From assembly GCA_963753595.1 (NCBI GenBank), contig CAVWCX010000024.1, positions 32,001 through 96,000 on the forward strand: 64,000 nucleotides of DNA, read 5' to 3'. The notes beneath the pieces were generated by a model. The model was given only the letters and a program-made list of their open reading frames with translations. It was not told where the DNA came from and did no database searches. Position 1 is the first letter of the stretch; each line of letters opens with the position of its first letter. Made by a program: the position numbers and the translations under genes. Positions 2,950 through 63,946 of the stretch are shown here, one piece after another. This stretch comes from Candidatus Methanoperedenaceae archaeon (GTDB lineage: Archaea > Halobacteriota > Methanosarcinia > Methanosarcinales > Methanoperedenaceae).

Positions 2950-3186
2950 TATTGGTCTATTCAGTCATTTGGAATTTCCCAAATATCGCACAGCAGAACT
3001 TGAAAATGTGAATTGGTCATGTATCCCATATATACAAAATGATGGTGCTAATTTGGTCTAATTTTATTCACCAAAATGAATTGAACCCCCCTTAACATCC
3101 CCATATTCCTAAAATTACCATTATGGAACAAAACCTTTATCATTTATCGATACATTTACGGGGTACCCCCATCATTGAATCAATGT

Positions 3187-3259
3187 GCCTGGGTGGGGTA
3201 GCTGGTTATCCTATGGGACTGTGGATCCTACGACCCGGGTTCGAATCCCGGCCCGGGCC
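3187..3259 (+). tRNA. tRNA-His (GUG)
   Basis: Acceptor GCCTGGG/CCCGGGC, anticodon arm TGGGA-CT GTG GA-TCCTA, T arm CCGGG-TTCGAAT-CCCGG; CCA not encoded. Confidence 0.95.
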
Positions 3260-3285
3260 TATTGTTTTTATTTGGAGCTCTGCAT

Positions 3286-4254
3286 ATGGCCAAATATAAT
3301 ATTTCAAGAATTATTAAGCCAAAAAAACAATATATTTTTATTTTACTGGCAGTAATAATTTTACTTTTTATTTTGGGTTCAGGCATATTTAAAACACAGG
3401 AAATACTTGAAAAACCAAAGCCCTCAGTTTCAATTGGTTGTGACAGGGTTTTATGGAAAGATACGGAAGAATTACTCGAAGCAACGGTCAAGAACATAGA
3501 TAATCCCTCATTTGAATGGAAATCAGACGGCACAAATATCGGTAATGGCCAGAAACTTTTACAAAAATTTGAGATAGGAGAGCACTCAGTATTGCTCAAT
3601 ATGACTTTCAATGACCAGACGCTTTCTGCAAAAAAATCCATTTTTGTCATTGATTCGGTAGATGGTATTACTATTCGCGAATATGCAGCTTCAAAAAACC
3701 AGTGGGGATTCCAGACCATGTTCAAAGGAAAAAATACAGGAGTTAAAGGGGTGATGATCTATATCGATTCATCTTCTCCATCAGAAGTAAATGCTTGCGG
3801 GGCACTCTCAACAAAAGCGCTTTTTTCAGGAAACCACACATGGACGGCAGAATACCGTGGTGCCCGGATAGCATACGGAACTTTCAATATCAAGGAAACA
3901 AGCGAACTGAAGATCGCCAGAATTGATATCGCGCCAAGCTATTCTGCTGGTAGTGAAGTTAAGGCAAAAATAATTCTTATGAATACAGGGTCTGTTGCGA
4001 TCACAGATTTTGAAACAAAGACTATTGCAATAAATAATGATTATGCCTGGATGGGAGATAAAGCAAAACGAGAATTTTCCGATCAATATAATGCAGATAT
4101 CCAGCCAGGTGCGTCATATGAGATCCCGATACAGATGACTATTCCAGAAAAAGTAAGTGGAATAAGACCATCTGGAAAATATAGTATTACAGTTAATTTA
4201 TTATTACATGGAAAAACAATTGATACAAAAATAGTATCAACGCAAGTCACATAA
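3286..4254 (+). CDS. Membrane-anchored extracellular protein with Ig/PKD-like beta domains
   Basis: N-terminal TM segment, beta-rich body; start MAKYN preferred over the TTG abutting the tRNA. Confidence 0.65.
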   Translation: MAKYNISRIIKPKKQYIFILLAVIILLFILGSGIFKTQEILEKPKPSVSIGCDRVLWKDTEELLEATVKNIDNPSFEWKSDGTNIGNGQKLLQKFEIGEHSVLLNMTFNDQTLSAKKSIFVIDSVDGITIREYAASKNQWGFQTMFKGKNTGVKGVMIYIDSSSPSEVNACGALSTKALFSGNHTWTAEYRGARIAYGTFNIKETSELKIARIDIAPSYSAGSEVKAKIILMNTGSVAITDFETKTIAINNDYAWMGDKAKREFSDQYNADIQPGASYEIPIQMTIPEKVSGIRPSGKYSITVNLLLHGKTIDTKIVSTQVT

Positions 4255-4304
4255 GTTAAAATTAGGTTTCATTAATTCCTTTACAAAATTTTGTATATTG
4301 CTTC

Positions 4305-4475
4305 CCGTAACGGTATTTATCCACCAAAATCCCGTTACGCAATACATACAATAATTTCCCGTTACGCAATTGTGTATGTTGATTTCCGTAACGGTATTTA
4401 TGGACTGAAATTCCGTTACGGGATTTGACCAGAAAAATCCCGTTACGCAATTCGTCTAAAAAATTCCCGTTACGG
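4305..4475. repeat. 7 copies of CCGTWACG core at exact 27-bp period
   Basis: Cores start at 4305, 4332, 4359, 4386, 4413, 4440, 4467. Confidence 0.9.
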
Positions 4476-4648
4476 GAAGTAAGTATAATATTTTTATTTA
4501 AACCTCTTATTTTAATTTATAGGACACGTTCTATAATCTGGCAAAGGTTAATCTATCCCTGGCAATAATTATCATTAGGATATTTTTTTGTTTTTAAAAA
4601 TATTTGCGTTTTTTGGGCAAAAAACACCCAAAAAAAGGCAAAAGCAGT

Positions 4649-4684
4649 AAAAACTGTATATAATATTTGTTATATACAGTTTTT
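4649..4684. other. dif-like tyrosine recombinase site
   Basis: AAAAACTGTATATAA-TATTTG-TTATATACAGTTTTT: perfect inverted arms, 6-bp spacer, ATAA-N6-TTAT geometry; 500 bp upstream of a Xer-like gene. Confidence 0.7.
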
Positions 4685-4694
4685 TTGGCTAAAA

Positions 4695-5105
4695 ATGAAT
4701 CGAAATCTCTATTTGATGTTAGTAATATTTTATGCCGACGTGACCAATAAAAAATACATCAGAAAGAACTATATAACCTGCAGCAGATGCGGAAGAAAAA
4801 AAATCCATCATGCACATGGATTATGCAGTGGATGCTATATGTCGGTTCATCGAATAGAACAGATAAAAAAACATAACGCTGAAGCGTATCATAATATTCC
4901 CTACGATTTATACCTAAAAATAACAGAAAAATGCTACATATGCGGTTTTGATTCTATAGTTGAACTTCATCATATTGATGAAAACCATGAAAATATATCC
5001 TTGAATAACCTTGTCGGTTTATGTCCTAATCACCATGCTATGATCCATCATAGAGATTTCAATACAGAAATAAAAAAATTGATAACTTGTATTCAAATCC
5101 AATAA
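4695..5105 (+). CDS. Zn-finger plus HNH endonuclease
   Basis: CSRC...HAHGLCSGC, then CYIC...ELHHIDENHEN...NLVGLCPNHH. Confidence 0.8.
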   Translation: MNRNLYLMLVIFYADVTNKKYIRKNYITCSRCGRKKIHHAHGLCSGCYMSVHRIEQIKKHNAEAYHNIPYDLYLKITEKCYICGFDSIVELHHIDENHENISLNNLVGLCPNHHAMIHHRDFNTEIKKLITCIQIQ

Positions 5106-5178
5106 ATCCAAAGCTCATTTATAAAATATTATAGGGATAATTATAATAATATCAAACTCCATTAATGAAAACTGATTT

Positions 5179-6009
5179 ATGATAGTAGATGAGCGTCTTA
5201 AAAAGCTTAACACTGAGGCAAAGTTGAGAGGCTTCTCACCTCAGACAACAAAAATGTATTTGTTTTATAATCAGAAATTACTTGAATATACAAGAAAGGA
5301 ACCAGCAGATATCACAGAAGATGACATAAAAGATTATCTGGGATCCAAACTTTCTGACGATTCACTTTCAAATGCTACGATAGCGCTAATAAAAGCTGCC
5401 TTTAAATTTTTTTATACAGAAATTCTTGGAAAAAATATCTCTCAAATAAAAACTCCAAAGAGGTCACAAAAACTTCCAATAGTCCTTAGCCGGACTGAGA
5501 TAAAAAACCTCATTGAAAAAACAGAAAATATCAAGCACAGGCTTATAATTGAACTCCTCTATTCCACCGGTTTGAGACTTTCAGAATGTATCAACCTGAA
5601 ATATTCTGACCTTGATCTAAATGATGGTATAGGCTGGGTTCGTTTGGGAAAAGGTTCAAAAGACAGAATTTTTATTATTTCTGAGGTATTCAAGAAAGAT
5701 CTCCTCGACTACAAAGAGAAAAATGGTTCAGATGGAAAAGGATACATATTTTTAGTAAATGGTAAAAAAATGACATATAGAGGCATTCAGCACGCCATAA
5801 AAGTATCCGCTTTGCGCGCCGGCATCGAGAAATCCGTGCATGTGCACACGCTGCGGCATTCTTTTGCAACACACCTTCTTGAGAACGGTGTCGATATAAG
5901 GAAAATACAAAAGCTGCTTGGGCATTCGAATTTACAGACTACGCAGATATACACACAGGTATCTTCTGAGGAGATAAAGAAGATCAAAAGCCCGCTGGAT
6001 ATGCTTTGA
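5179..6009 (+). CDS. XerA/XerD-like tyrosine recombinase
   Basis: TGLRLSE, GKGSKDR, HTLRHSFATHLLE, LLGH, TTQIY; 276 aa. Confidence 0.93.
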   Translation: MIVDERLKKLNTEAKLRGFSPQTTKMYLFYNQKLLEYTRKEPADITEDDIKDYLGSKLSDDSLSNATIALIKAAFKFFYTEILGKNISQIKTPKRSQKLPIVLSRTEIKNLIEKTENIKHRLIIELLYSTGLRLSECINLKYSDLDLNDGIGWVRLGKGSKDRIFIISEVFKKDLLDYKEKNGSDGKGYIFLVNGKKMTYRGIQHAIKVSALRAGIEKSVHVHTLRHSFATHLLENGVDIRKIQKLLGHSNLQTTQIYTQVSSEEIKKIKSPLDML

Positions 6010-6047
6010 TGTTATAAATAAAATATATAATAATATTTATATTATTA

Positions 6048-6329
6048 CTATTTTATCTCGCTTTGATGTTGGTCATATATCAGTCTTTCTTTTTCTTTCT
6101 TTAGTTCCATTTCCCTGCGAGCAATTGCTTTCATAGCTTCAGTAGGTTTATAGTTCAAATTGATCCTGTGTTTCTGCTCCCGGGTATATACAACATAACC
6201 ATACAACAGGAATGCAACTGTTGCGATCGGTATCAGAAATACCCATCCGACAACAAAACCCATAAAAGCTAACCCTATCAATGAGACAAACCCAAGTCTT
6301 AACTTTCTATTCTTAAAGATTTCCTTCAT
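6048..6329 (-). CDS. Small membrane protein (2 TM plus charged tail)
   Basis: 93-aa ORF, GGGAG RBS upstream, hydrophobic N-half. Confidence 0.6.
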   Translation of the reverse strand: MKEIFKNRKLRLGFVSLIGLAFMGFVVGWVFLIPIATVAFLLYGYVVYTREQKHRINLNYKPTEAMKAIARREMELKKEKERLIYDQHQSEIK

Positions 6330-6427
6330 ATCGAAACTCCCTTTTCATTACATTTCATATTTCTACTCCATAGTGATAATTGTTTCGTAGGAGAACGAAC
6401 TAACTATTGAATATAATTTGTATTTAA

Positions 6428-6470
6428 TTGCGTAACGGAATTTTTTTGAATGATTAGCGTAACGGAATTT
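6428..6470. repeat. Two GCGTAACGGAATTT copies, 27-bp period, inverted relative to the 4305 array
   Basis: Cores at 6431 and 6458. Confidence 0.8.
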
Positions 6471-6523
6471 ATAGAATATCTTTGAAAGATTAGTCAGTAA
6501 TATTTCCCATTTTAATATGATGA

Positions 6524-6765
6524 GTAAGTGGGCAGAAAGGGGGATTATGGTGGTATAGAAAAAATTTCTCTGCCCACTACAATTCGTATATATACGAACA
6601 AAACTATATATAGTTTACGTTTCTTGTAAAATCACATATTATCCTCTAAAACCTGGTATAGGAGGTAGTGGGCTTTTGGGATTTATGGTGGTGTGGTATC
6701 GAAAAAAAATATTTTTCTGCCCACTACAATTCGTATATATGCGAACCAAAGTATTTATAGTTTAC
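6524..6765. repeat. Two ~95-100 bp tandem units, each a stem-loop plus palindrome plus TATA-like box
   Basis: 6524-6618 and 6665-6765 share ATGGTGGT...TCTGCCCACTACAATTCGTATATATRCGAAC.AAA.TAT.TATAGTTTAC. Confidence 0.8.
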
Positions 6766-6865
6766 TGTCATAATCATTATAAGTATTAATATGCATGAAT
6801 ATCTGACCTGGAACACCTGTTGCTTGTATCGTTGCTCGTTATAATTTCACGATTCTTATAACAAA

Positions 6866-6930
6866 ATCCGTAACGGCATTTCTAACAAAAAATTGCGTAA
6901 CGGCATCTTTATATATTCCCGTAACGCAAT
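6866..6930. repeat. Three further CGTAACG cores
   Basis: Cores at 6869, 6896, 6920 (27 and 24 bp spacing). Confidence 0.8.
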
Positions 6931-6939
6931 TAGAATATC

Positions 6940-7185
6940 ATGACTGAACGTAAATATACCCGCTGGAAAAAATGCCTTATATGTGATGATTTTGTAAAAC
7001 TCATGTTCCCGGAGGACGCAAAGGATATGCTCATGATCTACGAACCCGTAGAAGGAATGAGCGATGAATCCGGGAACTGGAAAAAAAAACAAATGGGATA
7101 TATACACCGGTCATGTCTTCTAAAAGCAGCATCACTGAAGCCAAACAATGAAGAAAGAAACAGCAGTAGTTCAGAGGTCGTATAG
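6940..7185 (+). CDS. Small putative Zn-binding protein
   Basis: CLIC...HRSC; stop overlaps the ubiD start. Confidence 0.5.
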   Translation: MTERKYTRWKKCLICDDFVKLMFPEDAKDMLMIYEPVEGMSDESGNWKKKQMGYIHRSCLLKAASLKPNNEERNSSSSEVV

Positions 7186-8627
7186 TGGCATATAAGGATT
7201 TAAGGGAATTTATTGAAGTTCTCGAAAAACGAGGACTTCTGAAGCGGATAAAAACAGAAGTAAGTGCAGAGCTTGAGATCACTGAAATTCTTGACAGGTG
7301 TATGAAAAATAACGGCCCTGCACTTCTTTTTGAAAATGTATTAGGCTATAAGATGCCTGTATTTGCAAATGCGTTCGGTACAATGGAACGAATGTGCCTT
7401 GCACTTGACGTAAATGATCTTGATGAAATCGGTGCAAGGATAAAAAAGCTCATGGAATTTGAAGCCCCATCCGGATTATGGGAGGGAATAAAAAAGCTGC
7501 CTGAGGTAGTTGAACTTACATCATTTGCCCCCAAATATGTAAGATCAGGCCCGTGCAAAGAAGTAATTCTTAAAGATAAATTTTCACTTGATGATTTCCC
7601 TGTATTGAAATGCTGGCCCGGGGACGGGGGGCGCTTTATAACGCTTCCTCTTGTATTCACAAAAAACCCAAAAACCCGGAAGCAGAACGTAGGAATGTAC
7701 AGGATGCAGGTATATGATGCAAAAACAACAGGCATGCACTGGCATATCCATAAACACGGGGCGAGGGATTACGCTGATTCAGCAGGTAACGGAAAAATCG
7801 AGGTTGCCGTCGCTATCGGGGCAGATCCTTCTGTTGTATATTCAGCAACTGCGCCGCTTCCCGATAATATCGATGAGATAATGTTTGCCGGGTTCCTCCG
7901 TAAAAAGAACGTGGAGCTTGTTAAATGTGAAACTGTTGACCTTTATGTCCCCGCACATGCCGAAATTATCCTTGAAGGATATGTGGATGAAAAAGAGCGC
8001 CGCACAGAAGGACCTTTCGGCGACCACACAGGATATTATTCACTCGCAGATGAGTTCCCGGTATTCCATATAACATGCATTACACACCGAAAGAATCCCA
8101 TTTATCATGCCACCATCGTGGGAATACCGCCAATGGAAGACGCATATCTTGGAAAAGCAACAGAAAGGATCTTCCTTCCGCTCATGAAAGCCCAGCTTCC
8201 TGAAATTGTCGATGTCAACCTGCCTGTTGAAGCTGTTTTCCATAACCTGTGCATTGTATCCATAAAAAAGCGGTATCCAGGACATGCAAAGAAAGTCATG
8301 TTCGCACTCTGGGGAATGGGACAGATGATGTTCGCTAAGACCATAATCGTGCTTGATGATGATGTGAATATCCAGGACATGAGGGAAGTTCTCTGGGCAA
8401 CAACGACGCGAATGGATCCTGCCAGGGATGTTACGATCATTGATAATGCGCCGACAGATACGCTTGATCATGCTTCGAAAATGGCCAACCTCGGTTCCAA
8501 AATGGGAATTGATGCCACACGAAAAGGACAGGATGAAGGATTCAACCGGGAATGGCCTGATGCTTTGAAAATGGATGCAAGAGTAAAAGCGCGGGTGGAT
8601 ACGATATGGAAGGAGCTCGGATTATAA
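7185..8627 (+). CDS. ubiD: UbiD-family (menaquinone biosynthesis) decarboxylase
   Basis: DLREFI, NVGMYRMQV, EGPFGDHTGYY, SKMGIDAT. Confidence 0.92.
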   Translation: MAYKDLREFIEVLEKRGLLKRIKTEVSAELEITEILDRCMKNNGPALLFENVLGYKMPVFANAFGTMERMCLALDVNDLDEIGARIKKLMEFEAPSGLWEGIKKLPEVVELTSFAPKYVRSGPCKEVILKDKFSLDDFPVLKCWPGDGGRFITLPLVFTKNPKTRKQNVGMYRMQVYDAKTTGMHWHIHKHGARDYADSAGNGKIEVAVAIGADPSVVYSATAPLPDNIDEIMFAGFLRKKNVELVKCETVDLYVPAHAEIILEGYVDEKERRTEGPFGDHTGYYSLADEFPVFHITCITHRKNPIYHATIVGIPPMEDAYLGKATERIFLPLMKAQLPEIVDVNLPVEAVFHNLCIVSIKKRYPGHAKKVMFALWGMGQMMFAKTIIVLDDDVNIQDMREVLWATTTRMDPARDVTIIDNAPTDTLDHASKMANLGSKMGIDATRKGQDEGFNREWPDALKMDARVKARVDTIWKELGL

Positions 8628-8673: not shown

Positions 8674-9438
8674 TCAATCTTTACCCAGGTCTTCCCCTCC
8701 ATAATATATCTGCTGCACTGTATTGTATATGTCTTCCATGCCCGAGCCATAAGTCGATGAGACCGGAATAATATTCTGGCTTGCCCCAAATGATTTGAGC
8801 GCCGAAAGGAATTCAATACTTAGCTGGCTTTGCATCGTAGGTACCTCGTTGTGGATATCATCTTCAAGATCCATGATATTCCTGCTCCAGTTGATTATCC
8901 TGTCACGTTCTTCATCTTTTAGAAGGTCGGATTTCGGAAGGATATTTAAGAAAGGAACGTTGAACCGCATCTGGACTGATGCCGCCTGGAGCATTAATGA
9001 AATAAATCCCGATGGGGTTTTTGAGATTATGGGGTCATAGAGAAAACCAATGATCGACTGGTCGGCGCCAAGAGTATCAATGAGGAATTTCCCGGACTGG
9101 CGAAGCACAAACAGTTCCATCTGCCCGGGCGTGTCAAAAATAACATAATCGGATTCAAAGCTTTCAATTATATCTTTCATTTCATCGATATTTAAAGCAA
9201 GGAGGTCAGCTGCTATGATCTGTGCCCCGTTTGGCCCGACTCCATATTCCTTCATTACATCGTCCAATTTTACCCAGTCACGGATATCCACATCAGGGAC
9301 ATAAGGAGCATTTTCGATGCCAGGGTCAAGATTTACCGTAATTGCATCATATCTCTGGTTCTCCATCCATCCAAAAAAAGCATTTGTAAGTGAAGATTTA
9401 CCACTTCCCGCCGAGCCGATAAAATAAAGATTGATCAT
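8674..9438 (-). CDS. GPN-loop GTPase
   Basis: GSAGSGKS, NLDPG, GPNG, DTPGQME. Confidence 0.92.
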   Translation of the reverse strand: MINLYFIGSAGSGKSSLTNAFFGWMENQRYDAITVNLDPGIENAPYVPDVDIRDWVKLDDVMKEYGVGPNGAQIIAADLLALNIDEMKDIIESFESDYVIFDTPGQMELFVLRQSGKFLIDTLGADQSIIGFLYDPIISKTPSGFISLMLQAASVQMRFNVPFLNILPKSDLLKDEERDRIINWSRNIMDLEDDIHNEVPTMQSQLSIEFLSALKSFGASQNIIPVSSTYGSGMEDIYNTVQQIYYGGEDLGKD

Positions 9439-10377: not shown

Positions 10378-10559
10378 AACCGTAAAGAGCGCAAAAGGTA
10401 TAATAATTGTTCTTTGCGCTCTGGTATGAAAAAACAACGAACTAATACCAACTGAAACGAACTCAAGCTACCAGAGTTCGTTCGTGTTCGTTTATGTTCG
10501 TTGTTTTTTTTCATTTTTATTTATGAATCGGGAGGATTCATGGCCGACTTTGCGGTGTT
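10378..10559. repeat. Nested 9-nt-period palindromes (CGCAAAG type enclosing CGAAC type)
   Basis: atgaaaaaacaacgaac...gttcgttgttttttttcat (10426-10514) lies between ctttgcgctctg and ctttgcggtgtt. Confidence 0.65.
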
Positions 10560-43426: not shown

Positions 43427-44973
43427 CATTGGTCATCGGTTAAGCCCACCAGTCATCCCTGAACCGATGTCTACTGACATGGGGATCAAGTGCCTGACTT
43501 GAATAGACATTCATAACAGTCAGAATAGTTCTTTCAATCCCATAATACCGAAGTATCAGAGTAAGCTGTTTATCAGCATTTTCGGCAAAAATCGTACTCC
43601 ATCGCAATTGTGTAAAACGAGAACCAATATCTTTTGGATTATACTTCCGAACTAACGAATATATTCTCCTGCTTACTAAAAGGGTAAGAATCGATATCCA
43701 GATAAAGGCTTCGATAATTTGTGTGTTCTTTGTATTCACAACATCAAGAGCGTATCTGCTTTTCAGTTCTTTAAAGATCAGTTCAATATCCCATCTTGCT
43801 CCATAGAGTTTCGCAACATCCTCAGCCTCCAAAACATCTTTTGCAATATTAGTAAGATAGACATGATACTTTTCTTCATCTTCATTAAAAACCGCTACCA
43901 ATCGGAACTGTTCAGTATCCATTCTTGTCTTACTTTTCCCATTATAATTCGGTTTCTTGAATGAGACCTCAACTTCAACATCGAGTACTTGTCTTTTTAA
44001 CTTGGGGAGAATTTCACTGATATATTTCCCTTTCACATCAATACTATTCCCCCGACACGTATTATGCACATCAACAATAAGAGGATCCGCACTTCCTTTC
44101 AATCTGGACACGAAGTAACCGCCATTCTCCTTGATTTTAGCAAAGAGTAGATGTTTGTAGAAACCAAGATCGATAAGAAGAATTCTATCTTTTATCCATG
44201 GACCTATTCGCAGAGTCTTCAATTCATTTGTACTTTCAGGATGAATAGTGATGCTTTTTGGGCTGTTTGCCACGGCACTTACCAACAAACTCACTTTAAC
44301 GCCAGCTGCTACCGTTCTGGAACGTGCTGCCGGGAATTTTTTAGCAAGAGACTTATGCAATCTGATAATTGTGCTGTCCTGTATCATTACATCCTGGAAT
44401 TTAGCTATTTTTTCATTGAGAACTTTGGTTTGTTCCTTAGCAAGCTGTTCAATTCCATGAGTTACACATAGCCTCAGGAATGCAACAAGTTCAGGTGTGA
44501 ATCTTTCATACCAGCTGCTGTCGCTCAGTTTTTTATTGGAAAACTTTTCATAATTCCGTTTGACAAAGGCTAGATTTCTTGCAAGGCGAACACCATAACT
44601 ATTGACAAGAACCCAAAACATTTCTACGGCTGTCACTTTTCTCTCTCTTTCTATGAGGCCGGTTTCTTTTGCTGCTTGTTTCAGCCATTCTGGAGGGAAT
44701 AGTGTGTAGAGGTCTTTTTCAATTATATCGGGGTCATAAGATGGGATTTTTGTGTTTGGTTCTTTGGGCTTTTTCATGCTACTGATCCTCTTTCTAATTT
44801 TAATACAGTAAAATTAGAATTTTTAAGTAATATATGCATGCTAAGACGATAAATGCTTCGCTATATAACGATTATTTCAACTGGAAACCCAAAGCTATTG
44901 ACTAAAAACGAGTAATTCTGCAATCTTTTTTGAGATAATTCATTGAGCAGAATTCCTTAACCGATGACCAATG
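43427..44973 (-). mobile_element. IS4 family (ISH8-like) insertion sequence, copy 1
   Basis: 18-bp TIR CATTGGTCATCGGTTAAG; 10-bp TSD AATATGAAAC. Confidence 0.93.
43440..44777 (-). CDS. IS4-family DDE transposase
   Basis: QDST, IDLGF, YGARWDIELIFKELK (YREK motif). Confidence 0.93.
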   Translation of the reverse strand: MKKPKEPNTKIPSYDPDIIEKDLYTLFPPEWLKQAAKETGLIERERKVTAVEMFWVLVNSYGVRLARNLAFVKRNYEKFSNKKLSDSSWYERFTPELVAFLRLCVTHGIEQLAKEQTKVLNEKIAKFQDVMIQDSTIIRLHKSLAKKFPAARSRTVAAGVKVSLLVSAVANSPKSITIHPESTNELKTLRIGPWIKDRILLIDLGFYKHLLFAKIKENGGYFVSRLKGSADPLIVDVHNTCRGNSIDVKGKYISEILPKLKRQVLDVEVEVSFKKPNYNGKSKTRMDTEQFRLVAVFNEDEEKYHVYLTNIAKDVLEAEDVAKLYGARWDIELIFKELKSRYALDVVNTKNTQIIEAFIWISILTLLVSRRIYSLVRKYNPKDIGSRFTQLRWSTIFAENADKQLTLILRYYGIERTILTVMNVYSSQALDPHVSRHRFRDDWWA

Positions 44974-48467: not shown

Positions 48468-48670
48468 CATTTGTCATCGGTTAAGAGAGAAATCATCAAA
48501 TAGAACACGGATGACGCAGATGATACGGATGCGCACGGATCCGTGAAAATCCGCGCGATCCGTGTCATCCGTGTTCTATTCAAACTAAACCTGAAAAGCA
48601 TGGAAAATTAACAACTCTTTGAACAATTGTATAGTACAAGCATGTTGAATTCCTTAACCGATGACCGATG
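48468..48670. mobile_element. 203-bp MITE with ISH8-like ends
   Basis: Ends CATTTGTCATCGGTTAAG / CTTAACCGATGACCGATG; 10-bp TSD ATTATGAATA; internal palindrome 48499-48580. Confidence 0.9.
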
Positions 48671-50124: not shown

Positions 50125-51665
50125 CATTGGTCATCGGTTAAGCCCACCAGTCATCCCTGAACCGATGTCTACTGACATGGGGATCAAGTGCCTGACTTGA
50201 ATAGACATTCATAACAGTCAGAATAGTTCTTTCAATCCCATAATACCGAAGTATCAGAGTAAGCTGTTTATCAGCATTTTCGGCAAAAATCGTACTCCAT
50301 CGCAATTGTGTAAAACGAGAACCAATATCTTTTGGATTATACTTCCGAACTAACGAATATATTCTCCTGCTTACTAAAAGGGTAAGAATCGATATCCAGA
50401 TAAAGGCTTCGATAATTTGTGTGTTCTTTGTATTCACAACATCAAGAGCGTATCTGCTTTTCAGTTCTTTAAAGATCAGTTCAATATCCCATCTTGCTCC
50501 ATAGAGTTTCGCAACATCCTCAGCCTCCAAAACATCTTTTGCAATATTAGTAAGATAGACATGATACTTTTCTTCATCTTCATTAAAAACCGCTACCAAT
50601 CGGAACTGTTCCATTCTTGTCTTACTTTTCCCATTATAATTCGGTTTCTTGAATGAGACCTCAACTTCAACATCGAGTACTTGTCTTTTTAACTTGGGGA
50701 GAATTTCACTGATATATTTCCCTTTCACATCAATACTATTCCCCCGACACGTATTATGCACATCAACAATAAGAGGATCCGCACTTCCTTTCAATCTGGA
50801 CACGAAGTAACCGCCATTCTCCTTGATTTTAGCAAAGAGTAGATGTTTGTAGAAACCAAGATCGATAAGAAGAATTCTATCTTTTATCCATGGACCTATT
50901 CGCAGAGTCTTCAATTCATTTGTACTTTCAGGATGAATAGTGATGCTTTTTGGGCTGTTTGCCACGGCACTTACCAACAAACTCACTTTAACGCCAGCTG
51001 CTACCGTTCTGGAACGTGCTGCCGGGAATTTTTTAGCAAGAGACTTATGCAATCTGATAATTGTGCTGTCCTGTATCATTACATCCTGGAATTTAGCTAT
51101 TTTTTCATTGAGAACTTTGGTTTGTTCCTTAGCAAGCTGTTCAATTCCATGAGTTACACATAGCCTCAGGAATACAACAAGTTCAGGTGTGAATCTTTCA
51201 TACCAGCTGCTGTCGCTCAGTTTTTTATTGGAAAACTTTTCATAATTCCGTTTGACAAAGGCTAGATTTCTTGCAAGGCGAACACCATAACTATTGACAA
51301 GAACCCAAAACATTTCTACGGCTGTCACTTTTCTCTCTCTTTCTATGAGGCCGGTTTCTTTTGCTGCTTGTTTCAGCCATTCTGGAGGGAATAGTGTGTA
51401 GAGGTCTTTTTCAATTATATCGGGGTCATAAGATGGGATTTTTGTGTTTGGTTCTTTGGGCTTTTTCATGCTACTGATCCTCTTTCTAATTTTAATACAG
51501 TAAAATTAGAATTTTTAAGTAATATATGCATGCTAAGACGATAAATGCTTCGCTATATAACGATTATTTCAACTGGAAACCCAAAGCTATTGACTAAAAA
51601 CGAGTAATTCTGCAATCTTTTTTGAGATAATTCATTGAGCAGAATTCCTTAACCGATGACCAATG
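50125..51665 (-). mobile_element. IS4 family (ISH8-like) insertion sequence, copy 2
   Basis: Same TIR as copy 1; 10-bp TSD GGTTCTCCTC. Confidence 0.93.
50138..51469 (-). CDS. IS4-family DDE transposase
   Basis: Matches copy 1 except A>V and a 2-aa deletion (RMDTEQ vs RMEQ). Confidence 0.93.
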   Translation of the reverse strand: MKKPKEPNTKIPSYDPDIIEKDLYTLFPPEWLKQAAKETGLIERERKVTAVEMFWVLVNSYGVRLARNLAFVKRNYEKFSNKKLSDSSWYERFTPELVVFLRLCVTHGIEQLAKEQTKVLNEKIAKFQDVMIQDSTIIRLHKSLAKKFPAARSRTVAAGVKVSLLVSAVANSPKSITIHPESTNELKTLRIGPWIKDRILLIDLGFYKHLLFAKIKENGGYFVSRLKGSADPLIVDVHNTCRGNSIDVKGKYISEILPKLKRQVLDVEVEVSFKKPNYNGKSKTRMEQFRLVAVFNEDEEKYHVYLTNIAKDVLEAEDVAKLYGARWDIELIFKELKSRYALDVVNTKNTQIIEAFIWISILTLLVSRRIYSLVRKYNPKDIGSRFTQLRWSTIFAENADKQLTLILRYYGIERTILTVMNVYSSQALDPHVSRHRFRDDWWA

Positions 51666-54582: not shown

Positions 54583-55879
54583 GGATTGCCGAAAAATAAC
54601 TTATCTAAATTAATTCCCTTCCTCTTTTGGGGAAAGAGAATAATTCCATTTTGGGTGTAAAGAATGGTATTCTATCTTCAATCTTGCCATATCTTCATCA
54701 GAGAATTTAACTCCTTTATTATATTCCTTTTCATCTAATAGCGATGCCACAGTAAGACCTTTGTTTGTCTTTGTGCCACTGATCAGTTCAATAATTGTTT
54801 CAAAACTAACGAGCGGTTTCCCCTTCCAATTCATTGTAATGAATGAGAACATGCGATGTTCTATCTTGTTCCATTTGCTTGTCCCAGGAGGGTAATGGCA
54901 TACGGTAATAGGTATTTTTATTTGGTTCACCAATTCTTGTAAATGAAATTTCCAGCCTTTATTGCGACTTCCATTGCTCCCCCCACCATCTGCACATATC
55001 ATCAGACCTTTTGCATCTGGATAATTATTTCTTCCAAACATAAGCCACCATTGCCTTATGCTTTCAACGGCAAATTCGGACGTATCATAACTCATTCCCA
55101 CATTTACCATTCCTTCATTTCTCTTAAGATCATAAATCCCATATGGTGTCGCCCTTCCAATCCCAAGTGAAGGAAAATCATACACATTTACTTCTTTTGC
55201 CTTGCCTTTTTTCTCCCATGTTCTTCCAGGATTTTTGAATTCTCCTACATTTTCTTTCTTTTTTGCATCAACTGATATTACGGGATACTCCTGATTTATA
55301 AATTCTTTAGCTTTTTCGTTTATATACCTGAACTGGGCATCTCTTTCGGGAACTGAAGAACCTTCGATGTTTTTCTTATTGGCCTGAAGCGAGTAATCGT
55401 TTTCCTTCAATAAACGTCCTACTGTATCTGGATCGATTTTATGTTTTAGCTTTTTCAATTCATCAGCGATCTTGTAGGTTGATTTGTTTGTCCATTTCAG
55501 CAGGCTCATTGGGTCGCCTGAGGTGTTTTCATCCATTATTTTTTCAAGATCTCCAATTATTTCGGGATCTTTTATTTCTACCTTTTTTCTTCCTCCTCCA
55601 AGTGCTCGAAGTCTTTCTGGAGGTTTAAGTTTCTCTGACGTTTTGAGTTCCTCTATCCCTTTATGGATAGTCGAATGGGACATGCCTGTTAATTCTTCAA
55701 CTTTTGAGACTCCACCCCACCCAATTTCAAGTGCTATGGCTCCTGCAAAACGTCTTGCTTGAACTTCATCCGCTCCTGATAGGGCTTTTAGCCACCATGT
55801 GTACTCCTTGTTAGTATCCATGCCACTATATATGATGGCTTAGATTATATAATTTACTAATTTATTTTTAGGTATTGCC
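54582..55879 (-). mobile_element. ISAzo13-like insertion sequence
   Basis: Imperfect TIR GGGATTGCCGAAAAATAA / TTATTTTTAGGTATTGCC; TTA(G) duplicated. Confidence 0.8.
54610..55821 (-). CDS. ISAzo13-family transposase
   Basis: GDPMSLLKWT, SVDAKKKE, ADGGGSNG, PPGTSKWNKIEHR. Confidence 0.9.
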   Translation of the reverse strand: MDTNKEYTWWLKALSGADEVQARRFAGAIALEIGWGGVSKVEELTGMSHSTIHKGIEELKTSEKLKPPERLRALGGGRKKVEIKDPEIIGDLEKIMDENTSGDPMSLLKWTNKSTYKIADELKKLKHKIDPDTVGRLLKENDYSLQANKKNIEGSSVPERDAQFRYINEKAKEFINQEYPVISVDAKKKENVGEFKNPGRTWEKKGKAKEVNVYDFPSLGIGRATPYGIYDLKRNEGMVNVGMSYDTSEFAVESIRQWWLMFGRNNYPDAKGLMICADGGGSNGSRNKGWKFHLQELVNQIKIPITVCHYPPGTSKWNKIEHRMFSFITMNWKGKPLVSFETIIELISGTKTNKGLTVASLLDEKEYNKGVKFSDEDMARLKIEYHSLHPKWNYSLSPKEEGN

Positions 55880-55884
55880 TTAGC

Positions 55885-56676
55885 ATGCTGACGAGGAAGC
55901 AAATTGAAAAGATCGCCCTGAAGAACAGGGTGTCGCTATTTACCCAGGAGAGGGACTATGTACAGGCAGTATACCTTAGCCTTCTGTATTCGAAGACAAT
56001 CGGTTTAATATTCAAGGGGGGCACCTGCCTTCGAATTGCTTACAGTTCACCGAGATATTCTGAGGATCTGGATTTTAACTCAAATCTTGATGAAGATGAG
56101 GCATATAAAATGCTGGAAACAGCAGTAAAGGAGCTTGAGTATTTCGGCATCAGGGCACAGATCAGGAACAAGAGGATGTCCAGGTCAGGATTTGGCTTTG
56201 CCCTGAGTTATATGGGGCCCCTATACGAAGGAAGGGATATTACCAAAGGTATGGTAAGAATTGATGTCAGTTTGAGAGGGGAGAACGTATCTGAAGAAAG
56301 AGTAATGGTGCGTACAGAATACGATGATGTAAAGGCATTTGTTATCAGTGCGGCAAGCTTTGACCATATATTTGCGCAAATGGTGAGGGCGCTGCTGGTG
56401 AGAGGAATGGCAAGAGATCTTTATGACCTGTGGTTCCTGCTGGAAAGAGGGGTAAAACCCGACATTGAGTTAATAAACAGCAAGCTTGCTCTTTATGATA
56501 AGAGTTATTCCAGCAAGGAAATGAATGAGCGCATAGCGCAGCTTGAGAAAGGCTGGAGCAAAGACCTTTTACCGCTGCTTGGTGTGGTGGTTCCCTATGA
56601 GGTTGCGACGAAGAGGGTGGTTGATGGGTTGATGTCTATAAGTAAATCTTATCATGGTGGTCGTAATCTTCAATGA
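55885..56676 (+). CDS. AbiEii-like nucleotidyltransferase toxin
   Basis: ERDY, FKGGTCL, RYSEDLDF, RDLYDL. Confidence 0.88.
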   Translation: MLTRKQIEKIALKNRVSLFTQERDYVQAVYLSLLYSKTIGLIFKGGTCLRIAYSSPRYSEDLDFNSNLDEDEAYKMLETAVKELEYFGIRAQIRNKRMSRSGFGFALSYMGPLYEGRDITKGMVRIDVSLRGENVSEERVMVRTEYDDVKAFVISAASFDHIFAQMVRALLVRGMARDLYDLWFLLERGVKPDIELINSKLALYDKSYSSKEMNERIAQLEKGWSKDLLPLLGVVVPYEVATKRVVDGLMSISKSYHGGRNLQ

Positions 56677-57299: not shown

Positions 57300-57560
57300 T
57301 AAGGCGCCGATGTTTCCGCAATAATGAGGAGATATCGGCTTTATTTAACCGCAGATTAACGCAGATGCACGCAGATAAAAATCGACATTTCGGCGCAAAT
57401 ATATGTCCAAAAAGCGCTCATGCTTTGCGTTCTTTGCGGTGAAAACATAAGCAGAGTCAATCTGCATCAAATAGAACGCGGATGACACGGATTGCGCGGA
57501 TTTCCACGGATACGAAATCTGTGCGTATCCGCGTCATCCGCACAATCCGCGTTCCCATAG
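57300..57560. repeat. Cluster of hairpins and 9-nt-period arms
   Basis: gccgatgtttcc/ggagatatcggc; aaccgcagattaacgcagatgcacgcagat; ctttgcgttctttgcggtg; CGGAT-type palindrome 57470-57560. Confidence 0.75.
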
Positions 57561-57740: not shown

Positions 57741-60314
57741 TCATGAGATCTTCATCTTTCTGATATTCTTAATGCTTTTAATGACTTTATTCGAGTCCAT
57801 TGGTGTTTGAACTTGTGGAGATTTATGCACAAGATCAAAATCCGCTAAAATAATTCCTTCAAATCCTTTTTCAAGGTCGCACAACTTGGATGAATTATCA
57901 CCATCTCTCTTGCATCCGCTTTCTACTAAACGCCCGTAATAATCTCTGTGAAGCTGTCCGAATATTGATGTTCCTCCAAATAGTGCTGTGTTTGAAATTA
58001 TGATGTATGAAGGAATATTTGTAACATGGGCGTTAGCATATTCATGGAATCTCTCAATCCCTTTTGTTTCAGTATAAGATGGGCAGAAAATAATGTCTGT
58101 CTGATCACAAAATCTGGCATAATTTAGAAAATCTATGCATAAAAGTACCGAGAATGTTCCAAGATGAGTTTCATATCTGAACAGTTTATCACCGGATTTC
58201 ATTCCCCTGCCTGTTATCTCAGGGTCCTCAGGACGGGAGGGAGATTTCTTTAATTGGGGTGGCACTTCCAGGTTCATTATTACAGGACATTCATTAAAGT
58301 CGTTCTTATAATAACTCCCTCCAATAATTATCATATCAGGGTATCGATCCCTGATATCCTGCACCCATCCTTCACACATACAAAGCTCAGGCAAGCATGC
58401 AATATTAGTGCCGCAGCTTTTTGCTGTGTCAAGAGCTGAAATGATTTTCTGTTTGCACTCATCCTTTTTCTCAAGAGAAGGCGGGAAGGAATTTGTCAAT
58501 TGAAAACCGAACTGGATAGCAGCGATCCTGACAATATCTTGCTTTTGCTTATTCTCTTTATTGGCAGGCACAGTAATTATTGGCGGAATCTTAAAATTTT
58601 TATAAATTTCATTTAATTTGTTAAGTGTTGTTTCAAACATCCCCTGACTATCAAGATACTTTGCTTTTTTAAGGTCTTCAAGTATCTGAGCTCTTTTTTC
58701 TTCTGGAACATATTCACAGAATTTATTGAGAATTCCATTCATCTGCTCCAGGCTTTTGTCCTTTTTCAATTCATTTGATGAGGACAATTCATTGGCTTGT
58801 TTTACAGTCTCAAAACCCATTTCTTCAAGAGAAGTACCCCTTGTCTTCTTGCACAGCGCCTTTGCCTTATCTTGTATCTCTTCTGTTATCCCCTTATTCT
58901 TCTCGTCGATAATCGGCAGCCCCTTCCTGATCAATCTCGATGCACCCGGGGCTTTATTTTCAGTCGTTTTAAGCAGTTCACAGGCGCGGTCGCAGTACCG
59001 CCTGTATGCGTTGAGGTCGGATTTCGAAGCGTCGAAATCCCGCAAATTTTGCCCTTCCTTCAGCGCATTTCCAAGGTTCTCCACGGCTTCAAGCAGTTTC
59101 TCTTTGCTCTCCGAGCCTTCTACAGCGTTTTTTGCCTCTGCGAGATATTTATTCACTTCAGCCTCAGCTTCCTCTTTCTTGAAAGTCAAAGTGTAAAAAG
59201 AGCGGTAAAAAGGGAGGCAGAACTTTGCAGGGTTAAAAAAAGACGTCTCCTGTGAAGCTTTTTCAAAATATTGTATGGCTTCTTCCATATCCTTCTTGAA
59301 AACGTCTTCTTTTTCAGCGCCTTCAGCCCTGAATATAGAGACTTTGCCCAAAGAAAAATATGCCAATGCTCTGACATGGCCTTCTTTATCCCTTGTGAGC
59401 CAAATCAGGTCATCACATGCCTCTTGTTTGTGTTCATCAGGGATGTGGGGATATGCAGCACCGATGGCTTCAGTAACGTGCCATCGCACAAAAATGTCTT
59501 TGTCCTGCGTGAGCCGATGTAGGTCATCCCATGCCCGATTTTTATCAGGCATATTCGGGAAAACTGCACCAAGAGCCACAGCTACGCTCACCCGCGCCCC
59601 ACTATCTTCGTCCATAGCAAGGTGGTGCATGTCATCCCATGCCTGATTTTTATCTAACATCTGCAAAAATGCCGGGCCAATTGCATATACCACACTATCT
59701 ATCACATCGCTATCATCGTCCTTAGTGAGTCGTCGCAAATCGTCCCATGCCTGATTCTTATCAGGCAAATCCGAAAACACTGCCACCAGTGTATATCCAG
59801 CCTCCTCTCGCACACCGCTATCTTCGTCCTGAGTGAGATTATGCAGGTCGTTCCATGCCTGCTTTCTTTCAGGCACAAGTGAAAACGCTACACCAAGCGC
59901 TTCTGCTGCACTCTCTCGCGTTCCACTATTTTCATCCTGCGTGAGCTGGTGAAGGTCATCCCACGCCTGATTTTTATCAGGCACGTGTGAAAATGCTGCT
60001 CCAAGAGCACTTGCTGCACCTCCCCGCACAAAATTATCTTTGTCCTGAGTTAGCCGGTGCAAATCGCCCCACACCTGATTTTTATCAGATACGTATGAAA
60101 AAGCCACTCCAAGAGCACTTGCTGCACTTACCCGCACACAGCTCTTTTCATCCATAGTGAGCCGATGTAAGTCATCCCACCCCTGATTTTTGTCTGGAAA
60201 AGTTGTAAAATCATGGTAGAGTTGGTTCGCTGCCTCTTGCCGCTCCTCAACATCCTCGCTCCACGCCATCCTGTGAATTTCAGCTTGATCTTCCACGGAA
60301 CCTCTTGTTCTCAA
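57741..60314 (-). CDS. HEAT-repeat / helical linker / nitrilase (CN-hydrolase) fusion
   Basis: About 8 39-aa repeats (AWDDLHRLTQD...VR..AA.ALG); C-terminal RIAAIQ, LPE, QLK, LLCIDF; start may be GTG 60296. Confidence 0.82.
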   Translation of the reverse strand: MRTRGSVEDQAEIHRMAWSEDVEERQEAANQLYHDFTTFPDKNQGWDDLHRLTMDEKSCVRVSAASALGVAFSYVSDKNQVWGDLHRLTQDKDNFVRGGAASALGAAFSHVPDKNQAWDDLHQLTQDENSGTRESAAEALGVAFSLVPERKQAWNDLHNLTQDEDSGVREEAGYTLVAVFSDLPDKNQAWDDLRRLTKDDDSDVIDSVVYAIGPAFLQMLDKNQAWDDMHHLAMDEDSGARVSVAVALGAVFPNMPDKNRAWDDLHRLTQDKDIFVRWHVTEAIGAAYPHIPDEHKQEACDDLIWLTRDKEGHVRALAYFSLGKVSIFRAEGAEKEDVFKKDMEEAIQYFEKASQETSFFNPAKFCLPFYRSFYTLTFKKEEAEAEVNKYLAEAKNAVEGSESKEKLLEAVENLGNALKEGQNLRDFDASKSDLNAYRRYCDRACELLKTTENKAPGASRLIRKGLPIIDEKNKGITEEIQDKAKALCKKTRGTSLEEMGFETVKQANELSSSNELKKDKSLEQMNGILNKFCEYVPEEKRAQILEDLKKAKYLDSQGMFETTLNKLNEIYKNFKIPPIITVPANKENKQKQDIVRIAAIQFGFQLTNSFPPSLEKKDECKQKIISALDTAKSCGTNIACLPELCMCEGWVQDIRDRYPDMIIIGGSYYKNDFNECPVIMNLEVPPQLKKSPSRPEDPEITGRGMKSGDKLFRYETHLGTFSVLLCIDFLNYARFCDQTDIIFCPSYTETKGIERFHEYANAHVTNIPSYIIISNTALFGGTSIFGQLHRDYYGRLVESGCKRDGDNSSKLCDLEKGFEGIILADFDLVHKSPQVQTPMDSNKVIKSIKNIRKMKIS

Positions 60315-63527: not shown

Positions 63528-63589
63528 TATTTTTCCCATCGTTTATTTTTCAATTTGAATAACCGTATGAAAACAGAATCCGAAGCAAT

Positions 63590-63946
63590 AAATCTGCGTT
63601 CATCTGCGTTTATCTGCGGTTTGTATTTGATCTAAACAATATTAACATCGAACTGATACGAACTGGAACGAACTCACAGAAGAGTTCGTTTTGAGTTCGT
63701 CGGAGTGAGTTGTTATCGTTTTTCCATCCTATGTTTTGAGAGTCAGTTTGAATCGAACACGGATGACACGGATGACACGGATTGCGCGGATTTCCACGGA
63801 TACGAAATCCGTGCGTATCCGCGTCATCCGCGCGATCCGTGTTCTATGTCATGATTTTTTCCAACCGTTGATTTTTAGACAGGATAACAGGATTCACAGG
63901 ATACATGATAAAATATTATCCTGTCGATCCTGTAAATCCGGTCTGA
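63590..63946. repeat. Stack of four different 9-nt-period repeat/palindrome types
   Basis: GCAGAT arm 63592-63621; CGAAC hairpin ~63647-63715; CGGAT hairpin 63752-63847; CAGGAT hairpin ~63877-63945. Confidence 0.8.

Follow-up and report, generated by a model that had tools for sequence, protein, structure and literature searches.

The accessory sequences of the Xer recombination sites cer and psi are about 180 to 200 bp long, lie on one side of the Xer core, and are bound by PepA together with ArgR or ArcA. This accessory DNA makes recombination resolution-only, and a short transcript, Rcd, is produced from cer. In sopC of plasmid F and in parS/parC arrays, tandem units of constant length carry inverted repeats that are bound by dimers, with variable sequence in between. 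Archaeal regulators, such as NrpR, MDR1, and Lrp-type proteins, use one to three palindromic sites located on or just downstream of the TATA box, and an archaeal repressor classically sits on BRE/TATA and in the stretch from TATA to the start. The RTP-Ter system of Bacillus subtilis consists of a small dimeric protein and asymmetric, polar sites, which are found near its own gene, where they are involved in autoregulation, and in the terminus/dif region.

In archaea, chromosome dimers are resolved by XerA at dif and FtsK is absent, with the direction and timing of the reaction left unexplained in the sections of PMC8371274 drawn on here. The dif site is composed of 11-bp inverted repeats and a 6-bp spacer, as described in parts of PMC2958812 and PMC8371274, and its most conserved feature is given in the cited part of PMC11840125 as TAA-N6-8-TTA. 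The same part of that study places a dif-like site upstream of the xerA operon in Haloferax and Halobacterium and describes T. kodakarensis boundary DNA that acts by way of a protein bound to it, needs neither XerA nor dif, and forms an SMC domain boundary (PMC11840125). Tandem repeats also occur in the biological system to which the locus of the present study belongs, since Borgs carry recently formed, rapidly evolving tandem direct repeats, which the cited part of PMC9879509 describes as virtually absent from host genomes.

The window analyzed here is a stretch of 64,000 nucleotides (64 kb) from a Candidatus Methanoperedenaceae archaeon. It is archaeal chromosome, with TBP, eL15 and its Rfam leader, tRNA-His (3187-3259), the RNase P subunit Rpr2, UbiD, and UbiA, and it contains chemotaxis, sensor-kinase, transposase, and restriction-modification genes elsewhere. 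The first-pass annotation of this window had described an array of seven units with an exact 27-bp period, and this description holds, as the CGTWACG cores start at positions 4306, 4333, 4360, 4387, 4414, 4441, and 4468 and all six gaps are 27 bp. The predicted operators around these cores are centered at positions 4309, 4336, 4363, 4390, 4417, 4444, and 4471. In total, CGTWACG occurs 13 times in the window, compared with 1.79 expected, and none of 100 dinucleotide shuffles contained 13 or more copies; the longer CCGTWACG gives 19 strand-matches, compared with 1.04 expected. Twelve of the 13 cores fall within 2.6 kb (4306-6926). Five of them lie beyond the seven-unit array, at 6431 and 6458 (27 bp apart) and at 6869, 6896, and 6920 (27 and 24 bp apart), and the 13th, at 9936 within the UbiA ORF, may be a chance occurrence. 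As regards a possible restriction or methylation target, the DNA outside the clusters has one core in ~61 kb, which is neither avoidance nor enrichment. Since the units have nothing but the palindrome in common, Tandem Repeats Finder picked up the array in pieces, at 4408-4477 (period 27) and 4287-4452 (period 81). The features of the locus are listed in Table 1.

Table 1. Features of the array-xerA locus, in positions of the window
Feature	Position	Strand	Description
330-aa ORF	3262-4254		No family; borders the upstream array
Upstream array	4300..4481	.	Seven predicted 19-bp palindromic operators, 27-bp step
Promoter-like element	4490..4523	+	ATTTTTATTTAAACCTCTTATTTTAATTTATAGG; 34 bp, 15 nt after the last operator core
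dif-like site	4653..4680	.	ACTGTATATAA-TATTTG-TTATATACAGT; 11-bp arms, 6-bp spacer; extended palindrome 4649-4684
Zn-ribbon/HNH-like ORF	4695..5105	+	136 aa; variable insert between dif-like site and xerA
xerA	5179..6009	+	Archaeal chromosome-dimer tyrosine recombinase (NF040815 recomb_XerA_Arch)
93-aa membrane ORF	6048..6329	-	Variable insert; present in L017 as well
Operator pair B	6425..6470	.	Centers 6434 and 6461, 27 bp apart; upstream of the minus-strand 93-aa ORF
Element R	6500..6771	+	Conserved, non-coding, two copies (6500-6625 and 6647-6771); GTGGGCAG..CTGCCCAC hairpin, TTCGTATATATACGAA, TATTTATAGTTTACG
Operator triple C	6863..6932	.	Centers 6872, 6899, and 6923, 27 and 24 bp apart
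Zn81	6940..7185	+	Orphan 81-aa zinc protein; invariant C12, C15, H56, and C59
UbiD gene	7185-8627		Start overlapped by the Zn81 stop

A scan of 185,579 genomes, with three cores at a 27-bp step as the query, retrieved 112 stretches, compared with ~1 expected by our own arithmetic under equal base frequencies. Forty of these are archaeal loci on 30 contigs, which come from Candidatus Methanoperedens, Methanoperedenaceae, 'uncultured archaeon LFW', and Methanobacteriota MAGs. The remaining 72 belong to bacteria and two haloarchaea, and many of them have 9-bp sub-periods or are GC-rich. The flank score (of 12) was 8.63, with a minimum of 7.33, in the archaeal loci versus 3.27, with a maximum of 6.67, in the other 72. 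In these 72, whole units are alike and the palindromic flanks are absent, as in plain tandem repeats; they were rejected as operator arrays and left out of all later counts.

The logo of 252 archaeal sites shows that the conserved unit is the 19-bp palindrome AAATYCCGTWACGGRATTT, followed by ~8 variable bases. The first-pass annotation had recognized the CGTWACG core but not this full extent, and it had put the variable part at roughly 11 bases per unit, which is too many. It described the core as an odd palindrome, CGT-W-ACG; at the central W, 49% of the 252 sites have A and 51% have T, and the flanks mirror each other. The balance of A and T indicates that the sites have no polarity. Gaps of <30 bp between sites (n = 173) are 27 bp in 146 cases, 26 bp in 14, 24 bp in 7, 28 bp in 4, and 25 and 22 bp in 1 case each. 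As the scan itself demanded 27-bp steps, the gaps were recounted in 26 clusters unable to trigger it. The 40 gaps in these clusters are of 27 bp (23), 26 bp (7), 24 bp (7), 28 bp (2), and 22 bp (1), so that 32 of the 40 are 26 to 28 bp long.

Among close relatives, the cores are retained and the linkers have diverged, which, together with the retained step, indicates that the core and the spacing are both under selection. Exactly one 27-bp unit is absent from L024, and one locus among close relatives that is a unit short also has a decayed core; judged from such comparisons, the arrays grow and shrink by whole units. A comparison of the array among relatives had been suggested at the outset, and it revealed turnover of linkers, retention of palindrome and step, and no conserved reading frame. 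The symmetric core, the variable linkers, and the spacing that is constant across species are those of a phased operator array. At 27 bp per unit, neighboring dimers would be rotated by ~0.57 helical turn (by arithmetic, assuming 10.5 bp per turn) and would therefore alternate between helix faces. The array-xerA locus is syntenic in ~25 species, with UbiD adjoining. The genes upstream of the array vary between species, and the block from the array to xerA is retained. The sister clusters, the dif-like site, and the link to xerA as such all lay outside the first-pass annotation.

The identity of xerA is clear. The protein scores 261.7 bits against NF040815, for which the cut-off is 220, and is an archaeal XerA equivalog; its closest solved structures, 4a8e and 5hxy, are both XerA. 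The Xer label given to this gene earlier is borne out by this model and by the Pfam domains. The 276 aa of the protein are filled by PF13495 (residues 8-87) and PF00589 (residues 103-264), and it therefore has no arm-binding domain of the kind found in lambda-like integrases. With no room for such a domain, the suggestion that the repeats are arm sites fits less well. XerA was likewise rejected as the operator binder, since it has no spare domain and its expected target is the dif-like palindrome. The HNH label of the neighboring ORF was not upheld: no significant Pfam or NCBIfam family was found, and PF13391 (HNH_2) matched with E = 1.4 and 9.3 bits versus a cut-off of 21. An H-N-H-like string is visible in this ORF by eye only. 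Homologs of the ORF are present on only 6 of the 30 archaeal contigs.

The dif-like palindrome is present as one copy in all 28 loci whose view covers the position (27 loci and the window). Its arms are perfect in 24 of the 28. Five types of perfect arms occur across the loci, with both arms changed together, and the inner TATAA/TTATA never varies. All spacers are 6 bp long, and they have 14 different sequences, including four reverse-complement pairs, which occur between relatives with common flanks. The palindrome in the window has the 11-bp arms, the 6-bp spacer, and the TAA-N6-TTA inner positions of a dif site, and 13 of 22 arm positions are identical with those of T. kodakarensis dif as quoted in the cited part of PMC11840125. 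It is located directly upstream of xerA or, in 6 loci, of the HNH-like ORF and xerA. Loci lacking this ORF have a TATA-like box, TTTTTATATA, after the palindrome and ~30 bp before xerA. From these sequence features we infer that the palindrome is probably the dif of the chromosome; it may also, or instead, be an RNA hairpin or a terminator. No clear GC-skew switch was seen at the locus within the window, and the skew neither supports nor excludes a terminus position there. In L052, the array, the promoter-like element, and the palindrome are intact and the next gene is not xerA, which indicates that the array is tied to the dif-like site rather than to xerA or its expression.

The operators occur in three clusters. 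The upstream cluster contains 2 to 9 sites within 700 bp of the palindrome in 28 of 28 loci, and its nearest operator lies 156 to 196 bp from the palindrome center in most loci. The promoter-like element between them occurs once per locus, in constant orientation, in 24 of the 28 palindrome-bearing loci and is nearly invariant; the distance from the last upstream core to the element is 8 to 15 nt, mostly 15. It resembles an AAAACC-TTTAT..ATTTAT stretch before tRNA-His in the window and is a candidate strong promoter that would fire towards the palindrome. The second cluster follows xerA, with at least 2 sites within 700 bp of the xerA stop in 20 of 23 loci. The first of these sites is 8 to 56 bp beyond the stop in 17 of those 20 loci, and no such sites were found in the other 3 of the 23 over 405 to 620 bp of view. 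In the window and in L017, the 93-aa membrane ORF is inserted between the xerA stop and the operators that follow it, and operator pair B of the window corresponds to the array after the xerA stop in relatives. Element R recurs in 16 further loci, where it separates the post-xerA array from the Zn81 operators. RNAalifold recovered only its invariant hairpin, and covariation was not found.

The third cluster encloses a promoter. In operator triple C, sites 2 and 3 stand on either side of the TATA box TTTATATA (6908-6915), and 13 nt separate the end of site 3 from the ATG. Triples with a spacing of 26/27 and then 22/24 bp were found in 8 places (the window and 7 other loci). In all 8, site 2 directly adjoins TTTATATA or a close variant, with site 3 placed between TATA and ATG; the third site ends 13 to 20 nt before the ATG where this belongs to Zn81. 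Seven of the 8 triples precede Zn81 or run off the view, and that of L059 has no Zn81.

The locus shares features with each of the systems described above and differs from all of them. The operators flank the dif-like core at a distance, at about -156 to -196 in most loci, and may play the part of the accessory sequences of cer and psi. However, cer and psi belong to bacterial plasmids and have heterogeneous sites adjoining the core, whereas the sites here are chromosomal, archaeal, uniform, and phased; on one side, 150 bp or more separates them from the core, and a second array follows beyond xerA. The period of sopC is 43 bp, compared with 27 bp here, and no gene for a partition ATPase or ParB-like protein lies nearby; unlike sopC, the locus is chromosomal, with three clusters, one of them over a promoter. 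The placement of triple C is like that of archaeal repressor operators at BRE/TATA or the start site, whereas seven to nine operators at a strict 27-bp step upstream of a promoter are unusual among known archaeal operators. In contrast to RTP-Ter, the operators here are symmetric, and a clear GC-skew switch is not seen at the locus.

Two further systems are close in setting. The sequence surrounding dif in T. kodakarensis, with TrmBL2, is likewise non-coding DNA around an archaeal dif, as described in the cited part of PMC11840125. TrmBL2 is portrayed there as an abundant binder of AT-rich DNA that makes a stiff filament (PMC11840125), whereas the present sites are 19-bp palindromes at a 27-bp step, in short arrays (50 to 240 bp). 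The motif was found only in Methanoperedens-type archaea in the genome scan. In contrast to the Borg repeats described in the cited part of PMC9879509, the array is chromosomal and conserved on 30 archaeal contigs, and the palindrome alone is kept. Taken together, the array resembles phased operator and centromere arrays in the way it would work and Xer accessory DNA in its placement, without clearly belonging to any of these classes. A description of the motif, the arrays, or a Methanoperedens dif site was not found in the literature searched. The matches listed for the motif concern unrelated subjects and include no known operator. Methanoperedens XerA was found in the literature only as a Foldseek annotation, and no relevant match was found for 27-bp repeats. 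A jumbo-element preprint contains no Xer or dif content.

On balance, we consider the array to be a cooperative double-stranded DNA landing pad for a symmetric dimeric protein; the pad would be part of the dif/xerA module and would, at a minimum, repress transcription. A symmetric, probably dimeric, sequence-specific protein of the Methanoperedens lineage would bind the operators, with one 19-bp operator and ~8 bp of free linker in each 27-bp unit, and the dimers would line up side by side and coat 50 to 240 bp. The three operator clusters would belong to the chromosome dimer-resolution module. The first is an upstream array abutting a promoter-like element that would fire towards the dif-like site and xerA, the second an array starting a few bases past the xerA stop codon, and the third a set of three operators enclosing the BRE/TATA-to-start region of Zn81. 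This anatomy, together with its conservation and synteny, is what the comparison establishes. The bound protein would repress the Zn81 promoter by blocking access to TATA and the start site and would control, positively or negatively, the promoter beside the seven-unit array and thereby transcription into dif/xerA. The protein-binding array proposed by the first-pass annotation fits all of the comparative evidence, including conservation, symmetry, and placement at TATA; its narrower labels (iteron, centromere, and arm site) fit less well. Against the landing-pad reading, seven to nine operators exceed the needs of simple promoter control, the upstream array and the promoter-like element do not overlap, and the array of L052 stands before a gene other than xerA.

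The protein that binds the operators may be Zn81, which is the only other conserved small gene product of the block. Its 56 homologs are all at least 65% identical, with residues 1-60 almost invariant, and the few that are named come from Methanoperedens or unclassified archaea. A profile search against 1.84 billion representatives retrieved 5 proteins at E <=0.001 and no wider family. The homodimer model of Zn81 scored 0.45 versus 0.01 for the best control, and three runs had at least 85% of contacts in common, with a partner pLDDT of at least 64. Twenty of 30 solved homodimers attained that mark, compared with 1 of 23 monomers, and these counts are rough since our own alignment was used. The modeling thus supports the pairing of Zn81 as a homodimer. 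The AlphaFold2 model of the protein is weak (pLDDT 60.3), Foldseek gave 0 matches in the PDB at E <=0.001, and the ESM Atlas gave only unnamed viral clusters below the recognition mark; no recognizable DNA-binding fold was found by these three approaches, and no match was found in Pfam or NCBIfam. Zn81 is absent from the view in L021+L022 and in L028, and it is absent in L059 despite the operator triple. The HNH-like ORF and the 93-aa ORF were rejected as binders, being too patchy across the loci. The lineage range of Zn81 and its position behind operators of its own make it the best guess. That it binds the operators and acts on its own promoter is the weakest step of the proposal, and the binder could be encoded anywhere else in the genome.

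The arrays may instead be an architectural element of dif, a reading that is possible but that we regard as rather unlikely. The coated arrays would then serve as a synaptic or topological filter that confines XerA to dimer resolution, after the manner of the cer and psi accessory sequences, as a site where SMC stalls or is unloaded, as at the sequence surrounding dif in T. kodakarensis with TrmBL2, or as a polar or non-polar replication fork barrier of the RTP-Ter kind. In nearly all loci, arrays lie on both sides of the dif-like site and xerA, the array of L052 stays with the palindrome where xerA is missing, and up to 9 strictly phased sites would suit a filament. In several euryarchaea a domain boundary coincides with dif, and it is the DNA around dif and a roadblock protein, rather than XerA or dif, that establish it, as reported in the cited part of PMC11840125, and the control of resolution in archaea, which have no FtsK, is left unexplained in that of PMC8371274. 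However, the nearest operator is 150 to 190 bp or more away from the palindrome, the intervening DNA contains the promoter-like element and a variable leader, the arrangement of operators at the Zn81 promoter resembles plain repression, and the palindrome is itself only a presumed dif of the chromosome. A specific version, to which we give a low but appreciable chance, is that the arrays are the missing control element of archaeal dimer resolution, with a lineage-specific protein, possibly Zn81, polymerizing on the operators to either side of dif/xerA into a nucleoprotein clamp. Such a clamp would give XerA resolution-only selectivity or cell-cycle timing without FtsK; alternatively, it would stop SMC or replication forks at dif. 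The promoter beside the array would fire a short transcript across dif, in a manner loosely like that of Rcd.

An action of the array as RNA is very improbable. It would involve palindrome hairpins, processed short RNAs, or a structured RNA, for example through leftward transcription starting at the conserved AT-rich element, and the first-pass annotation had suggested a processed RNA array serving the HNH nuclease. Both strands of 4300-4480 do fold far better than shuffles (z = -7.3 and -7.0), and the array has a conserved AT-rich element directly at one end, which to some extent recalls a leader. However, repeated palindromes fold automatically into stable predicted structures, and the folding was therefore given no weight. 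A linker of 8 nt is too small to accommodate a guide, identical sites enclose a TATA box, and the W occurs in either order. No Rfam match was found at E <=1 over 4200-7000, and the HNH-like gene, its presumed partner, occurs on just 6 of 30 contigs, whereas the arrays are present on all; the proposed link to this gene is thus not sustained. CRISPR arrays have repeats of ~23 to 50 bp, unique spacers of comparable length, a leader, and usually cas genes. A CRISPR array was rejected, as the unit is 27 bp in all, with ~8 bp between palindromes, and no cas genes were seen in the 64-kb window.

It is still less probable that the repeats are the iterons or the centromere of an integrated plasmid or virus that entered beside tRNA-His and carries the HNH-like and integrase genes. 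The tRNA gene lies 1 kb upstream of the array, a tyrosine recombinase and the HNH-like gene adjoin, the GC content falls to 0.35-0.37 over 2-8 kb, and fixed-period repeats with a palindromic core resemble sopC-type centromeres. However, the recombinase is a XerA equivalog rather than the integrase of an element, the locus is syntenic in ~25 species with UbiD adjoining, and the genes upstream of the array differ by species while the block from the array to xerA is kept. Genes for rep, parA, parB, and segA are absent from the neighborhood. Plasmid iterons or a replication origin were rejected, as the sites are symmetric and no Rep/Orc1 domain was found among the ORFs of the window, and so was a partition centromere, as the conserved block has xerA, Zn81, and UbiD as neighbors and no par or seg genes. 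The iteron and centromere labels of the first-pass annotation fit less well, with no rep or parA/segA genes nearby.

The least probable reading is a repeat-coding peptide or a functionless recent tandem duplication: the minus-strand ORF at 4262..4450 (62 aa) does exist, one frame is open across the array of the window, and the 81-bp super-period suggests growth by duplication, but among the 9 arrays of 5 or more units, 5 are closed by stop codons in every one of the six frames and the other 4 differ in which frame is open, which argues against the proposed 9-aa-repeat peptide, the linkers diverge while the palindrome is invariant over 252 sites, and the non-archaeal matches show what plain repeats look like, with whole units alike and no palindromic flanks.

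The locus is a sharply defined, sequence-specific, conserved candidate for a dif-flanking function in another euryarchaeal lineage. There is a low but appreciable chance that no cis-element controlling Xer/dif or SMC at a dif site in archaea was defined before this one. The motif is simple enough to mutate, and the list of candidate binders is short. If the arrays are only a local repressor system, they would still constitute an unusually regular operator array and the first functional lead for the orphan Zn81 family. In addition, the likely dif site of Methanoperedens may be used to assess genome completeness and replichore structure in this environmentally important methane oxidizer.

The palindrome that resembles dif sites, a putative site of XerA, is followed directly by the tyrosine recombinase gene xerA, or by a Zn-ribbon/HNH-like ORF plus xerA, in the window and among the 27 related loci that carry a counterpart (see the table). 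Sequence comparison among Methanoperedens loci reveals that its two arms co-vary. The 6-bp spacer occurs as reverse-complement pairs between relatives with common flanks, namely TATTTG/CAAATA, CAGATA/TATCTG, GGTAGA/TCTACC, and GATAGA/TCTATC.

Between the array of seven palindromic operators and the dif-like palindrome lies a 34-bp AT-rich element, which is present in one copy per locus with a constant orientation towards the palindrome and is similar to the stretch preceding the tRNA-His gene (window 3128-3147). The 100 to 200 bp that separate this element from the palindrome are partially conserved and contain no conserved ORF.

A second conserved non-coding element, of about 100 bp, is found after xerA. 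It consists of a hairpin, GTGGGCAG...CTGCCCAC, enclosing GGGGATTATGGTGGTGGTAT and A/T runs, followed by TTCGTATATATACGAA and TATTTATAGTTTACG. One to three copies are present in 16 other loci, located between the operator array that follows the xerA stop (the post-xerA array) and the triple operators around the TATA box of the 81-aa zinc-protein gene (the Zn81 operators). The element had no match in Rfam, and no covariation was seen in it.

Features of the window by position
Feature	Window position	Remarks
AT-rich element, 34 bp	4490-4523	Immediately after the array; nearly invariant
dif-like palindrome	4653-4680 (extended, 4649-4684)	11-bp perfect arms, 6-bp spacer; counterparts in 27 related loci
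Zn-ribbon/HNH-like ORF	4695-5105	Between dif-like palindrome and xerA
Conserved non-coding element, ~100 bp	6500-6625, 6647-6771	Two copies
GPN-loop GTPase gene	8674-9438	Minus strand; PF03029; adjoins UbiD gene
Direct-then-inverted motif families	10436-10502, 48505-48540, 57345-57376, 57476-57550, 63592-63618, 63649-63700, 63757-63850, 63879-63939	
Transposase genes	43440-44777, 50138-51469, 54610-55821	Two similar DDE_Tnp_1, one ISAzo13-type
AbiEii toxin-like gene	55885-56676	
108-bp tandem repeat	59804-60191	~3.6 copies, 74-76% matches; within 857-aa HEAT-repeat ORF (57741-60314)
Type I restriction-modification M and S pair	60343-63539	

Elsewhere in the window, the synteny of the GPN-loop GTPase gene is kept in two related loci (L006+L007 and L049+L050), and no connection with the arrays was seen. 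Further short-motif families (ACGAAC/GTTCGT, CACGGAT/ATCCGYG, ACAGGAT/ATCCTGT, and ATCTGCG/CGCAGAT) comprise three to five direct copies with a 9- to 10-bp step and then an equal number of inverted copies; they are intergenic, and some reappear at far-apart positions. The 108-bp tandem repeat is probably a coding repeat.

L052 (positions 1-1800), from a Methanoperedens metagenome-assembled genome, retains the array, the 34-bp element, and the palindrome intact, but the genes beside them are ORFs of 211 and 254 aa instead of xerA, as a result of either rearrangement or the joining of sequences during assembly. In L012+L013 and L014+L015, the interval from the post-xerA array to the Zn81 operators contains an insertion of about 1.8 to 2 kb of additional genes, a winged-helix-looking ORF of about 145 aa and an ORF of 277 to 380 aa; different small ORFs occupy this interval in L034. 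The Zn-ribbon/HNH-like ORF was found in only six archaeal contigs, those other than the window being L008, L012/13, L040, L059, and L068, and a short remnant matching residues 14 to 40 is retained in L028. The ORF has the appearance of a mobile element inserted at this position, upstream of xerA.
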